DNA from: Escherichia phage LF82-1 | Length of the DNA: 64,000 nt | Sequence record: PV648359 | Direction: 5' to 3' (one strand) | Shown: in pieces, positions 57,048-60,375 of the stretch | How the letters are laid out: every line of letters starts with the position of its first letter | How positions within the stretch are numbered: the stretch's first letter is position 1 | Notes under the pieces: model-generated | Told to the model about the DNA's origin: nothing | The model's input: only the letters and a program-made list of their open reading frames with translations | Databases searched by the model: none | Program-made: the position numbers and the translations under genes

Positions 57048-57352
57048 TATAATATTCTCTCAAATTTGTGGAAGCATTTACGGCATTTCAATTTCAAGTT
57101 ATCAGTGGTCCAGTTAACCAGTTGGACTTGGATAGTTCCACATTCCGGGCATGGATGTTTTGCTGCTGATTTGGCAGCATTTTCACGTCGTTCAACCATT
57201 TTCATTATTTCGTTCCATGCTGGAGGAACGAACTCTTCTTCACCGTGGATTTTATCTCGCTGAACAAATTCAATCTTTGAACTATCGTCAATAAACTTAA
57301 CCAAGCCATGATTAGTGCTCATATCAATATCCTCTAAAAGACGTAGTTTCAT
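57047..57352 (-). CDS. zinc-ribbon protein
   Basis: 101 aa; CPEC..(x21)..CRKC. Confidence 0.45.
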   Translation of the reverse strand: MKLRLLEDIDMSTNHGLVKFIDDSSKIEFVQRDKIHGEEEFVPPAWNEIMKMVERRENAAKSAAKHPCPECGTIQVQLVNWTTDNLKLKCRKCFHKFERIL

Positions 57353-58302
57353 TATAACACCTCAATGGCATTTCGTAAACCGTCCGCTTTCGCATTCAGA
57401 GCTTTTAACGATTTAGTCTGTTCTTTAATCTGGGCTTCGACTTCTTTCAGACGAGATTTGAGATATTCACGTTCTTCGCTCAAGTTGTCAACTTTTTCTA
57501 CTTTAGGTTCTTTAATAGTCTTAAGTTTATACTCGTTAGGGTTCTTCAGCTTAATTCGGGTGCGAGAACTGTATAACATTGAACCGTTATCTTCGGATTC
57601 GTCGAACGTTTCAACAACATCCATAGTCTCTAACAATGTAATAAGTTTATAAGACAATGAACGAACGGTTTTGTTATGCTTATTAATTTCTTCAGCTTTC
57701 ATGGTACCGAGATTACGTGAGTAGTAATAAGGAACCTGGATATCAATTGATAATGATGCGTTACCATTACCGGTCGGTTTGAATACTGCAGTAACCCAAT
57801 CTTTAACATGAACTTTATTTGTACGACCATCACCGCCCGTGAATAATTTACGAGAATGTTTAAAAAGCATATTCACTTGGTTATTGAATTCACAAGCAAA
57901 TTTATCAGCGAATTTAGTTTCAGGAATGGTAGATAACCAATCAGCCAAATGAGTCTTTTTAACATCATTAATAATAGTGAATTCAACCAAATCAGTTTTA
58001 GATGTCACAGATTTAATAAAGCTCGGTTTCATAAAGTTTTTAATGTTATCGCGAGCTACAGTAGAAGATAATAAACGAGAACGTTTGAACCATTGAAGCA
58101 GTGTCCCTAATGAATGAGAATACGCATTCTGAGTATCTTTACAGATATGATTTTCTTGACCTGTGTATGTACCAAAATCGCGAAGAATACCACTTACTAC
58201 ATCTCGGTGTGGAACATCAAATCCTAGTGCACCAACAGCGCGCTGGGCACGAACGTTAGCGATAAGACCGGCAAAGTATTCAATGTAATGTGAACGTGTC
58301 AT
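57352..58302 (-). CDS. hypothetical protein with C-terminal coiled coil
   Basis: 316 aa; heptad-rich tail; own conserved early promoter. Confidence 0.5.
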   Translation of the reverse strand: MTRSHYIEYFAGLIANVRAQRAVGALGFDVPHRDVVSGILRDFGTYTGQENHICKDTQNAYSHSLGTLLQWFKRSRLLSSTVARDNIKNFMKPSFIKSVTSKTDLVEFTIINDVKKTHLADWLSTIPETKFADKFACEFNNQVNMLFKHSRKLFTGGDGRTNKVHVKDWVTAVFKPTGNGNASLSIDIQVPYYYSRNLGTMKAEEINKHNKTVRSLSYKLITLLETMDVVETFDESEDNGSMLYSSRTRIKLKNPNEYKLKTIKEPKVEKVDNLSEEREYLKSRLKEVEAQIKEQTKSLKALNAKADGLRNAIEVL

Positions 58303-58328
58303 AATATTTTCCTCTCGTTAAGATAGAT

Positions 58329-58361
58329 TTATTATACTCCAACCATCCTTGGTTGTAAACC
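58329..58361 (-). promoter_or_regulatory. early promoter (GTTTACA-accaaggatggttggag-TATAATA) for ORF 57352..58302
   Basis: ATTATACTCCAACCATCCTTGGTTGTAAAC, identical to the copy at 16973. Confidence 0.6.
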
Positions 58362-58364
58362 GTT

Positions 58365-59324
58365 TTATGATTTTAATGCATTCATTGCATTAAAAAGTTT
58401 AGAGTACTGCAACTGGAGATTCGTTACAACACTTTGAGCATCACGAAGCTTAGCTTGTGCTTTGTCAAGTTCAACGGACAGTTGGTCTGCAGTAGCCTTG
58501 ATTTGGTTGTAATGATAATCTTCGGCCGGAAGAAGGTCATTAGAAACATTTAGTTTTACTGCCGACAGTTTGCACACATTTGGCAAACCTTTAAACATAC
58601 CGGGTTGTGTCGGAGAATATGCGCTTAGAACCTCTGCATTACCGACTGGTGTTGCTGTAATATTGCCTTCAAACAATGCATTTTCCTTTTTAAGATTTTG
58701 ATAGTATTCAGAGTCTTTGTGCCACCATGGCGCAGGAACCTTTTTACCAATAGATACACGAGCCTGGATAGCGATATGGCCCTTATTCTTGATAGGGTCG
58801 ATAATATTAAGCTCACGAGAATAAATTGCTTTAATTTGGTGAATATTATCACCTAACACTTCCAACGCTTGGTGGAATACACGAGCAACGTTATCGTTCT
58901 TAGGTTTATATGTAAGAGTGAACTCGTTCTCACTGATAACCATGATTTCTAACTTATCGTAAGTATATTTCAAATGTTTCATGTTAATTGCTTGAGGACG
59001 AATACGAGAAGCAATGGCCATCAGATTGTTAAGGTTATTTCGGAACTGTTTAGCGAAATATTGTCCTTCACCGCCGATACAAAAATTACGAAGTTTCTGT
59101 TTGGCTAATAAACGGCTGAACTCACCATTTTTAATGAACTCTTTAACGGGTGTGTTAGTAATGCATTCAAATTGAGTAAACATACGAGAATTAATCCCAT
59201 AATATGAACAGATTTCCTCAATCTCTTCAGGAGTCTTTACAGGCATACGGATAGGATTAGGTCCTGGAGTATATGCGTTCGAGGTAAATTCTTTGATAAG
59301 TTCTCTACGTGTAATAAAAGCCAT
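58365..59324 (-). CDS. hypothetical protein with C-terminal coiled coil
   Basis: 319 aa; own conserved early promoter. Confidence 0.5.
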   Translation of the reverse strand: MAFITRRELIKEFTSNAYTPGPNPIRMPVKTPEEIEEICSYYGINSRMFTQFECITNTPVKEFIKNGEFSRLLAKQKLRNFCIGGEGQYFAKQFRNNLNNLMAIASRIRPQAINMKHLKYTYDKLEIMVISENEFTLTYKPKNDNVARVFHQALEVLGDNIHQIKAIYSRELNIIDPIKNKGHIAIQARVSIGKKVPAPWWHKDSEYYQNLKKENALFEGNITATPVGNAEVLSAYSPTQPGMFKGLPNVCKLSAVKLNVSNDLLPAEDYHYNQIKATADQLSVELDKAQAKLRDAQSVVTNLQLQYSKLFNAMNALKS

Positions 59325-59348
59325 TTTATATTCCTCATGTTGAAAAAT

Positions 59349-59381
59349 TTATTATACTCCAACCATCCTTGGTTGTACATC
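59349..59381 (-). promoter_or_regulatory. early promoter (same family) for ORF 58365..59324
   Basis: ATTATACTCCAACCATCCTTGGTTGTACAT. Confidence 0.55.
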
Positions 59382-60375
59382 ATTCCTTAAGAAGTTTTAC
59401 TACTTGAATAAGATTAGCTCGTTCTGTTTTATTTTTACCGTTTAAGCCTGCTAATCGTGAGATTTCATCGTCAGTCTGTTGAATAGTTACATTAAGTTCG
59501 TTAATCAAAGCTTCAAAGTATTTGATTTGCTCAGCATGTTTTGATTCAAATTTCTGAACCGGAATAACGTCTTGGTTCAGTCCATCAATAAGGTCTTTAA
59601 GAGCATCTTCTTGGTTGATATCATATTCAACTTCCTTTATTTCTTCAACGAGCTCGTCTTTATATCTAACGTCTTTTAGTCCTGGTGCTGGTCCTGAAAT
59701 CTCTTCTTTAAGAGTACAAACATACCCAATACGGTATCCAATGCCGTCTCGCTTGATATCAACTTCGTCGATAAATCCACAATGTTTAAGTCCAGAGCCG
59801 ATTATGTCAAAATATCCTTGACGACGTCCTTCAAACGTTACACGAACTACTAAGACAGTTTTGCCACCGACCTTTTGAAGCTCACATTTATAAAAGTCCG
59901 TTGAACCTGAATAACGTGGATGAGTTTTAAAGTTCATCTGACGATCTAGGCCCATTTGTAAACGTGCTGTTACGGCCATAAAACGTGTTTGGTTCTCGTT
60001 AAGATGAGCAACAATCCATTTCAAAGGCATTTTACACTGTTCACGACCGAACAAATCAGTACGTCCTAGATTACGCAGGATGTTGTTAGAGTTAATCATC
60101 GACAGAACGTTAAGTTTATTCAACGCGCTGAAGATTCCGTCAGCCATTGATTTTCCATAACCTTTACACGCTTTAATAAGTGCTCGCGGCAGATTAGTAT
60201 AGATTTCAGACGGCATATGAAAATCAAATTTACTAGTCAGTAATTGATGAACTTGGATAGCAATTTGCTCATAATTAAGTGCTCTGCGATCGTTATGGTC
60301 TTTAAACCACACTTTAATCTGTGAAGCACATAAACCGTTAATTTCATGTTTTACCGCATCAGATGTAATGCTCAT
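59380..60375 (-). CDS. hypothetical protein with C-terminal coiled coil
   Basis: 331 aa. Confidence 0.5.
   Translation of the reverse strand: MSITSDAVKHEINGLCASQIKVWFKDHNDRRALNYEQIAIQVHQLLTSKFDFHMPSEIYTNLPRALIKACKGYGKSMADGIFSALNKLNVLSMINSNNILRNLGRTDLFGREQCKMPLKWIVAHLNENQTRFMAVTARLQMGLDRQMNFKTHPRYSGSTDFYKCELQKVGGKTVLVVRVTFEGRRQGYFDIIGSGLKHCGFIDEVDIKRDGIGYRIGYVCTLKEEISGPAPGLKDVRYKDELVEEIKEVEYDINQEDALKDLIDGLNQDVIPVQKFESKHAEQIKYFEALINELNVTIQQTDDEISRLAGLNGKNKTERANLIQVVKLLKE

Follow-up and report, generated by a model that had tools for sequence, protein, structure and literature searches.

Three tandem genes between nrdC and nrdC.8

The window analysed here is a stretch of 64,000 nucleotides from Escherichia phage LF82-1 (sequence record PV648359), a Mosigvirus, i.e. 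a phage of the T4 group related to RB69. On its minus strand it contains a tandem array of three open reading frames (ORFs), referred to below as A (57352–58302, 316 aa), B (58365–59324, 319 aa) and C (59380–60375, 331 aa). The array was first pointed out at 57352–60375 in a first-pass annotation made from the DNA alone, and our ORF listing reproduced it. A–C lie upstream of nrdC (56378–56656), inside the T4-type block nrdC.1–nrdC.11. They are the Mosigvirus version of the nrdC.3/nrdC.5/nrdC.6 block of T4 and occupy the hyperplastic stretch that extends from nrdC to nrdC.8; the RB69 annotation names the three genes nrdC.3, nrdC.5 and nrdC.6.

A GAGG Shine-Dalgarno sequence precedes each of the three ATG codons by 6–9 nt, and ORFs on the opposite strand of A–C reach at most 95 aa. 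Scans of positions 56000–64000 for tRNAs and Rfam families gave no matches. In comparison with three other Mosigvirus genomes, the ratio of non-synonymous to synonymous substitution rates (dN/dS) was 0.16–0.21 for A, 0.10–0.20 for B and 0.04–0.21 for C, while it was 0.02–0.08 for the flanking NrdC.10 and NrdC.11. Values of 0.04–0.21 indicate purifying selection, and hence that A, B and C are real genes whose proteins are maintained. The 3-kb array is 100% identical to that of Escherichia phage LF82-2 and its siblings, 97–98% identical to that of Shigella phage Shf125875 and PhAPEC2, and present at a coverage of at least 80% in 131 phage records.

The first-pass annotation had noticed little similarity of the three proteins to T4 proteins. 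For A this was incorrect. A blastp search against the T4 proteins matched A to NrdC.3 with 56% identity over 316 aa (E 1e-118), and weakly (E 1e-4) to NrdC.4, a paralogue of NrdC.3 of which the phage of the window has no copy. A also matches phrog_1435 (E 1e-101), and PF26897 is found in the precomputed annotations of its homologues. The identity to T4 NrdC.3 extends over the full length of A, both proteins end in the tail ...LNAKA.GLRNAIEVL and both genes lie beside nrdC.2; synteny with nrdC.3 of T4 and RB69 was confirmed. We assign A as the orthologue of T4 NrdC.3.

For B and C the claim of little similarity holds only superficially, since homologues in NrdC.5 and NrdC.6, respectively, can be detected. 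B matches the Pfam family DUF7235 (PF23882) with an E-value of 1.8e-119 and a score of 399 bits, the gathering cut-off being 30; its residues 15–318 align to positions 1–307 of the 307 positions in the profile. Full-length matches to this model were also obtained with T4 NrdC.5 (E 5e-126, 420 bits) and with the homologue in the T4-like locus L005. In a direct blastp comparison, B and T4 NrdC.5 are 26% identical over 308 aa, and B further matches phrog_2351. The two proteins share their place between the nrdC.6 and nrdC.3/4 homologues, an early-gene context, a coil ending in ...KL.NA.NAL.. and the motif P-x-E-x-aromatic-H before this coil. B differs from T4 NrdC.5 in being 21 residues shorter, in its linker, and in belonging to a subtype restricted to Mosigvirus (132 records, all Mosigvirus). 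We classify B as a divergent full-length member of the NrdC.5/DUF7235 family.

A phmmer search of B against 1.84e9 representatives returned its own cluster only and no relatives beyond Mosigvirus, so that no deeper alignment could be built. When a mixed-family alignment was used as query, many NrdC.6 relatives were retrieved, there was not a single T4-type NrdC.5, and the B alignment stayed shallow. The linker of B (aa 216–262, window 58539–58679) is hypervariable, with insertions and deletions, among Mosigvirus homologues that are otherwise 87–96% identical.

C is 29% identical to T4 NrdC.6 over 270 aa (blastp, E 3.6e-18) and matches phrog_2257 (E 5e-127), and the precomputed annotation of its family contains PF26899. 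The PF26897 and PF26899 assignments both derive from such precomputed annotations, these two models lying outside the Pfam copy that was scanned. The synteny of C is conserved, as it adjoins nrdC.8. C has the core L-x-N..., N-Q-x-R-x-x-A-x-x-A-R-L... that is invariant in T4-type NrdC.6 proteins, and its tail (...DDEI.RL.GL..K.K.ER..L....LLK.) is almost the same as theirs. However, it is only 29–35% identical to these proteins and 35–50 residues longer than most of them, and the cassette in front of it is of the middle type instead of the early type. We place C in the NrdC.6 family.

All three proteins thus fall into existing Pfam and PHROG families; they are new members of known families and not a new kind of element. 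Their homologues are often labelled differently. In GenBank, NrdC.3, NrdC.5 and NrdC.6 homologues of Mosigvirus, Tequatrovirus and Dhakavirus often carry the name 'thioredoxin', and the UniRef names follow. Thioredoxin and glutaredoxin families gave no match to A, B or C at E ≤0.1, and the CxxC motif is absent from the translations. A thioredoxin-related function was rejected on these grounds, and because family match and motif are both missing, the label appears to be a carry-over from the nrdC.N locus names.

Promoter cassettes of the array

Two of the ORFs had been credited with matched early promoters in the first-pass annotation, and our promoter scan found them as well, both on the minus strand. 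The promoter of A (58331–58359) reads TTTACA-ACCAAGGATGGTTGGAG-TATAAT and agrees with the consensus at 11/12 positions, while that of B (59351–59379) reads TGTACA-ACCAAGGATGGTTGGAG-TATAAT and agrees at 10/12, each with a spacer of 17 nt. The spacers are identical and form part of one cassette, TACAACCAAGGATGGTTGGAGTATAAT. They contain the hairpin CAACCA-AGGA-TGGTTG, with a 6-bp stem and a folding energy of −6.9 to −7.5 kcal/mol (z about −1.5).

A point missed earlier is that these promoters resemble the PeSL cassettes of T4-like phages. PeSLs consist of an early promoter, TTTACW-N17-TAYWAT, with a stem-loop between its boxes (Arbiol et al., 2010; Comeau et al., 2014; PMC2839356, PMC4122927). 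They occur in hyperplastic regions, where they flank accessory ORFs, and they have been proposed as agents of modular shuffling (PMC2839356, PMC4122927). By the definition given in PMC4122927, we classify the promoters of A and B as PeSL cassettes. Like T4-type PeSLs, they are intergenic, have a T4/PST-type promoter with a stem-loop between the −35 and −10 boxes, are repeated, and lie beside accessory ORFs. They differ from the PeSLs of RB49, whose stems are G/C tracts, in that the stem-loop is short, AT-rich and worth about −7 kcal/mol.

Four copies of the cassette are present in the window. The two further copies, also on the minus strand, are located at 16975–17003 (exact) and at 16417–16443, where the stem carries a compensatory change (ATCCA...TGGAT); they flank dexA.1/dexA.2-like ORFs (164 and 182 aa) that lie downstream of dexA (17010–17687) and dda (17697–19010). 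In the window and the fetched loci together, perfect X5-AGGA-X5' hairpins occur 24 times against 3.9 expected, all on the sense strand and in a promoter context. The AGGA loop is conserved, while the stem occurs in five variants (AACCA, TACCA, CCACA, AGCCA and ATCCA), which implies that the stem covaries.

A terminator scan at the hairpin gave nothing, and no T-run lies 3' of it. A role of the hairpin in termination seems doubtful, because it is weak. On the 3' side of the hairpin (58331–58345 and 59351–59365, minus strand) lies GGAGUAUAAUA, which matches the RegB/S1 cleavage consensus GGAGRAYARAA (PMC1702504) at 9/11 positions. It is pure speculation that the −10 box might double as an RNA processing site on read-through transcripts.

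C lacks a promoter with sigma-70 spacing: the gap between TTTACC and TATAAT is 11 nt, which does not agree with an early PeSL. Upstream of C, at 60411–60435 on the minus strand, GCTTTA and TATAAT are separated by 13 nt with the hairpin ACCC-AAGGAC-GGGT, which we take to be the MotA-box middle-promoter arrangement of T4. The pattern GCTTYA-N11–13-TATAAT occurs eight times in the window (at 20162, 22613, 31888, 33487, 44034, 50422, 54562 and 60411), against 0.17 expected, and six of the eight are on the minus strand. These sites probably constitute a set of middle promoters. The same middle-type cassette is found upstream of T4 nrdC.7 and of the nrdC.6 homologue of L005.

The promoter scan also found that the gene of the NrdC.8 homologue is preceded by an early promoter (60993–61020, minus strand; TTTACA-16-TATTAT with a TG extension, 10/12). 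Between this promoter and C, no terminator-like sites were predicted on the minus strand. Judging from these sites, A and B would each be transcribed from a strong sigma-70 early promoter of their own within a PeSL cassette, while C would be transcribed from the MotA-type middle-promoter-like site, and transcripts that start at the nrdC.8 early promoter would probably read through into it as well.

Coiled-coil tails and kinship of the three families

In agreement with the first-pass annotation, each of the three proteins ends in a heptad-rich tail that resembles a coiled coil. Heptads were scored by a script of our own, in windows of 28 residues and all seven registers, and the scores were compared with those of 200 shuffles per protein. 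Residues 267–316 of A, 268–319 of B and 281–310 of C scored above all 200 shuffles, and the tails of T4 NrdC.3 and NrdC.5 likewise exceeded their shuffles. All three tails show hydrophobic periodicity at positions a and d over at least four heptads and are free of proline.

On the minus strand of the window, the tail of A (aa 267–316) corresponds to 57355–57504 and is conserved in T4 NrdC.3. That of B (aa 268–319; 58368–58523) follows the motif P-A-E-D-Y-H; besides the heptad score, it is supported by a profile hidden Markov model (HMM) of the tail and by AlphaFold2, which predicts a single long helix at 268–318 with a per-residue confidence (pLDDT) of about 50–70. The tail of C (aa 281–331; 59383–59535) follows P-V-x-K-F-E-S-K-H and is predicted as a helical hairpin or coiled coil, with helices at 281–308 and 313–330 (pLDDT 65–76). 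It is nearly invariant in a 96-sequence alignment of its family.

Such tails are widespread at this position. We fetched 18 loci, anchored on NrdC.10, and found two to four ORFs of 256–393 aa in the slot between nrdC.8/9 and nrdC.2 of every phage. In 20 T4-like genomes, every slot protein of ~280–390 aa has a tail of this kind, with the sole exception of the frameshifted NrdC.6 of the T4 reference. The commonest ending is ...[KR]..L..A[LVM]..L[KN], and P-[VAI]-x-x-x-H right before the coil is common to NrdC.5, NrdC.6 and the Karamvirus type K7.

In the T4 reference (L001, NC_000866, 7997–8200, minus strand), nrdC.6 carries a 1-nt deletion relative to the close relative L008 (GAGCTGAATATT to GAGCTG-ATATT). 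The annotated T4 NrdC.6 (275 aa) therefore lacks the coil, whereas the tail is intact in the +1 frame up to the start of nrdC.5; the frameshift reflects an error in sequencing or else a mutation of the laboratory strain. Similarly, nrdC.5 of the RB69 reference (L021, NC_004928, 1501–2470) has four single-base deletions relative to the gene of the window, in the linker region at about positions 730, 738, 779 and 788 of the coding sequence, and the annotated protein (300 aa) loses a coil that can be read in another frame. What both frameshifts remove is exactly the coiled-coil tail. In locus L010, nrdC.4 is split into ORFs of 193 and 158 aa. Such lesions could suggest that A–C are decaying remnants in a recombination hotspot. 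Yet A, B and C are intact in the window, with Shine-Dalgarno sequences and promoters, their dN/dS ratios are those of maintained proteins, and their full length is kept in more than 130 genomes. We regard decay as extremely unlikely.

By blast, the slot proteins fall into the clusters NrdC.3+NrdC.4, NrdC.5, NrdC.6, K3, K4, K6, K7 and K11. The content of the slot varies: T4 has an extra NrdC.4, L005 is without NrdC.3, and distant T4-like phages have other families. Two links between families are robust, namely NrdC.3–NrdC.4 (hhalign 97%, HMM E 1e-13) and K4–K6 (hhalign and HMM).

Profile comparisons with hhalign are suggestive of one further common element. The families of A and B align with a probability of 87% (E 3.7e-6), those of A and C with an E-value of 0.003 and those of B and C with an E-value of 0.028 but a probability of only 1.7%, each time at the same motif: ..S-R-x-x-x-x-x-A-x-x-x-L/I-K/R-N-F/L ... 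F-x-x-x-F/L-x-x-N-x-x-x-h-h-x-x-A-x-R/K. On the minus strand, the motif is located at 57841–58107 in A (aa 66–154; ...FKRSRLLSSTVARDNIKNF ... FACEFNNQVNMLFKHSRKLF), at 58998–59147 in B (aa 60–109; VKEFIKNGEFSRLLAKQKLRNF ... FAKQFRNNLNNLMAIASRIR) and at 59956–60141 in C (aa 79–140; ...LNVLSMINSNNILRNL ... AHLNENQTRFMAVTARLQ). In C it contains most of the invariant columns of the 96-sequence alignment, lying partly in the helical domain that AlphaFold2 predicts with confidence and partly just after it. NrdC.4 and NrdC.5 align with a probability of 54% over 141 colinear columns, and NrdC.6 and K7 with 80% over 180 columns.

K7 is of particular relevance, because its body matches NrdC.6 while its tail matches NrdC.5 (30.9 bits against DUF7235, and E 2e-4 against the NrdC.5 tail HMM), so that it bridges the body of the one family and the tail of the other. 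K7 is 82% identical to a protein of Enterobacter phage IME523. The 335-aa IME523 protein that was the third-best Foldseek match of the C model (E 4e-5) is most likely a K7 homologue. The tail HMM of B weakly reaches NrdC.3 (E 0.002). Moreover, the models of B and C, though of low confidence, present the same order of elements: N-terminal helices, three strands, a helix, two strands, a long unstructured linker and a terminal helix. Iterative HMM searches with decoys, for tails as well as bodies, gave cross-family scores that were marginal only. Taken together, we consider a common origin of all three families fairly probable.

Distant T4-like phages (L006, L007, L012–L014 and L016–L019, at ~12300–14150) carry in the same slot a well-conserved ORF of ~260 aa, cluster K3. 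Its tail (...VRLENGATVYGSLP...IEF.ATF...D.THAFFKRP) lacks a coiled coil, and no relation of K3 to the NrdC.3–6 families was detected.

A possible role in counter-defence

The first-pass annotation suggested that the three proteins may be host-takeover or anti-defence effectors. For B alone there is a precedent at the family level, through DUF7235 and T4 NrdC.5. An evolved T4 clone lacking nrdC.5 does not plate on ECOR17 unless dsr1 of the host is deleted; dsr1 on a plasmid shields MG1655 from this clone, and nrdC.5 supplied in trans restores infection (Srikant et al., 2022; PMC9391042). Dsr1 is a SIR2-domain protein that is thought to deplete NAD+. According to a 2026 preprint, the major capsid protein triggers its TPR sensor, which is common to Dsr1 and Avs7, and sensors of this type occur in fusions with a variety of effectors (PMC12803255). 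Our literature search yielded no subsequent study of how NrdC.5 works and no paper dealing with NrdC.3, NrdC.4 or NrdC.6.

The genomic setting is consistent with an accessory role. A viable genome-reduced T4 lacks the block nrdC.1–6 (PMC9825161), which is therefore dispensable. Gp49.2 of T6, encoded near nrdC, inhibits OLD (PMC13096335), and hence the neighbourhood holds other anti-defence genes. Furthermore, B and C are only 26–29% identical to their T4 counterparts, whereas the flanking proteins NrdC.8, NrdC.10 and NrdC.11 are 83, 77 and 78% identical to theirs (blastp); such divergence is typical of arms-race genes. The early promoters immediately in front of A and B and the varying content of the slot among phages also speak for a counter-defence role.

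Searches for other functions returned little. Pfam, NCBIfam and PADLOC gave only DUF7235 and sub-threshold coiled-coil noise for A, B and C. A sequence search of the PDB gave nothing for A and B, and the best PDB match of the C-family profile was a tape-measure protein (E 0.029, weak). Clear homology to structural or housekeeping proteins, which the first-pass annotation had named as the result that would speak against its proposal, was not found in Pfam, NCBIfam, PADLOC or the PDB, nor did these searches reveal any enzyme or structural-protein signature. A binding protein therefore fits better than an enzyme.

The coiled coils, and the tape-measure protein as best weak match of the C family, could be taken to mean that A–C are structural, scaffolding or housekeeping proteins. 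We rejected the structural reading, since the promoters are early or middle and not late and the T4 block can be deleted. In addition, no match to a structural family was significant, and A–C types are absent or replaced in other T4-like phages. A structural, scaffolding or housekeeping role is therefore very unlikely.

Structure prediction followed by Foldseek, the check that the first-pass annotation had proposed, was informative in part. The fold search was made with the model of C, whose usable parts are its N-terminal helices and its tail, and recovered NrdC.6 of phage JS10 from BFVD (E 2e-8); the model of B was unusable. Both models are too poor for a fold comparison between the families.

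We lean, with little to spare, towards the interpretation that the array is the T4-type nrdC.3/5/6 accessory block and that its proteins act as early, stoichiometric inhibitors of host defence, with B directed against a Dsr1-type system. Each protein would consist of an N-terminal helical domain with the shared motif, a small alpha/beta domain, a linker that is variable and probably disordered, and a coil of ~50 residues. The coil may give rise to dimers or higher oligomers, while the N-terminal and middle domains would bind a host immune protein. B would block the sensor or effector of a Dsr1-type system at a time when late proteins, including the capsid protein, have yet to appear, which would prevent the depletion of NAD+, and A and C may act likewise on other targets. 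By analogy with T4 NrdC.5, we infer that B keeps the anti-Dsr1 activity, presumably by direct binding and with a role for the coil; an anti-defence function of A and C would extend the same inference. A functional analogue of the proposed mode of action, and similar to B in that respect only, is DSAD1 of phage SPbeta. According to the reports on it (PMC10981675, PMC11087589), DSAD1 binds and neutralises the SIR2 NADase DSR2, a sensor of the tail tube, so that it differs from B in target and in phage lineage.

Several points weigh against this interpretation. The sole tested member of the family shares only 26% identity with B, and at such a distance the specificity of counter-defence proteins often shifts. 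The published evidence on T4 NrdC.5 is genetic rescue, not mechanism or direct binding (PMC9391042), and no functional literature was found for NrdC.3 or NrdC.6. Within Mosigvirus, dN/dS shows no sign of positive selection. The AlphaFold2 models are poor (mean pLDDT 41 in the case of B and 57 in that of C), and the domain picture rests largely on secondary structure of low confidence. Finally, descent of A, B and C from one ancestor is supported only marginally, and in HMM searches of the bodies that included reversed-sequence decoys, no cross-family match was below E 1e-3 except NrdC.3–NrdC.4 and K4–K6.

The last result, together with the 1.7% hhalign probability between the B and C families and the silence of the literature on NrdC.3 and NrdC.6, would also agree with a different explanation, in which only B is a counter-defence protein. 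A and C would then be unrelated early modulators of host takeover or physiology (e.g., of transcription, the nucleoid or the envelope) that share with B a generic coil and a position in a hotspot. However, the three proteins are alike in length, in the predicted order of secondary structure and in the N-terminal motif, which was found in all three pairwise profile comparisons. Their tails are linked via K7, and their genes are adjacent, in a region with other anti-defence genes. We therefore consider this explanation unlikely, albeit worth keeping in mind.

A serious alternative to conserved activity, given the 26% identity, is that B has been retargeted, either to another defence system or to a divergent Dsr1/Avs7-type sensor of the natural hosts of Mosigvirus. 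The contrast with the 77–83% identity of the flanking proteins points in this direction, as do the confinement of the B subtype to Mosigvirus, the hypervariability of linker 216–262 even among close relatives, and the fusion of Dsr1-type TPR sensors to many effectors. Conversely, the match of B to DUF7235 is a full-length one in which the core residues are conserved, and its position and promoter type are unchanged with respect to T4 NrdC.5. Weighing both sides, we hold retargeting to be possible but doubtful.

Under the interpretation of A–C as early counter-defence inhibitors, the entire slot from nrdC.2 to nrdC.8 might be a single, fast-diversifying family of paralogues (NrdC.3–6, K4, K6 and K7). 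Its members would share a chassis of N-terminal helical motif and C-terminal coil, with heads each tuned to a different immune sensor (the Dsr1/Avs7-type TPR first) and with members or tails swapped at PeSL/PmSL cassettes. This extension is tentative, and we would not expect it to hold in full.

The surrounding block has features of its own. A gene for an NrdC.7-like membrane protein (56634–57047, minus strand, 137 aa, 42% identical to T4 NrdC.7) is located between nrdC and nrdC.2. In T4, by contrast, nrdC.7 has nrdC.6 and nrdC.8 as its neighbours, and the place that the NrdC.7-like gene has in the window is taken by nrdC.1; the gene has been relocated within the nrdC block. The NrdC.10 homologue (61450–62442, minus strand) is a P-loop ATPase with a weak, sub-cut-off likeness to AAA/STAND NTPases (AAA_22, nSTAND3), and the NrdC.11 homologue (62546–63535, minus strand) is an RlaP-type nucleotidyltransferase (PF10127, E 6e-13). 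The two form a conserved gene pair, whose 77–78% identity to T4 is far above that of A, B and C.

For the most part, our analysis re-identifies genes that were already catalogued. What it adds is their assignment to T4 genes and families, the PeSL and middle-type cassettes, the common architecture, the bridge protein K7 and the frameshifts that remove the coil from two reference proteins. If B counters Dsr1-type NADases, it would be a naturally diverged second example of the sole known anti-Dsr1 family. A comparison of B with T4 NrdC.5 would then show which residues matter, and A and C would become obvious candidate inhibitors of other defence systems. If the slot is indeed one family of paralogues, it would represent a modular anti-sensor array, analogous to an anti-CRISPR locus. 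These possibilities are relevant for the host range of therapeutic T4-like phages, as LF82, the strain on which the closest relatives of the window were isolated, is a pathogenic E. coli.

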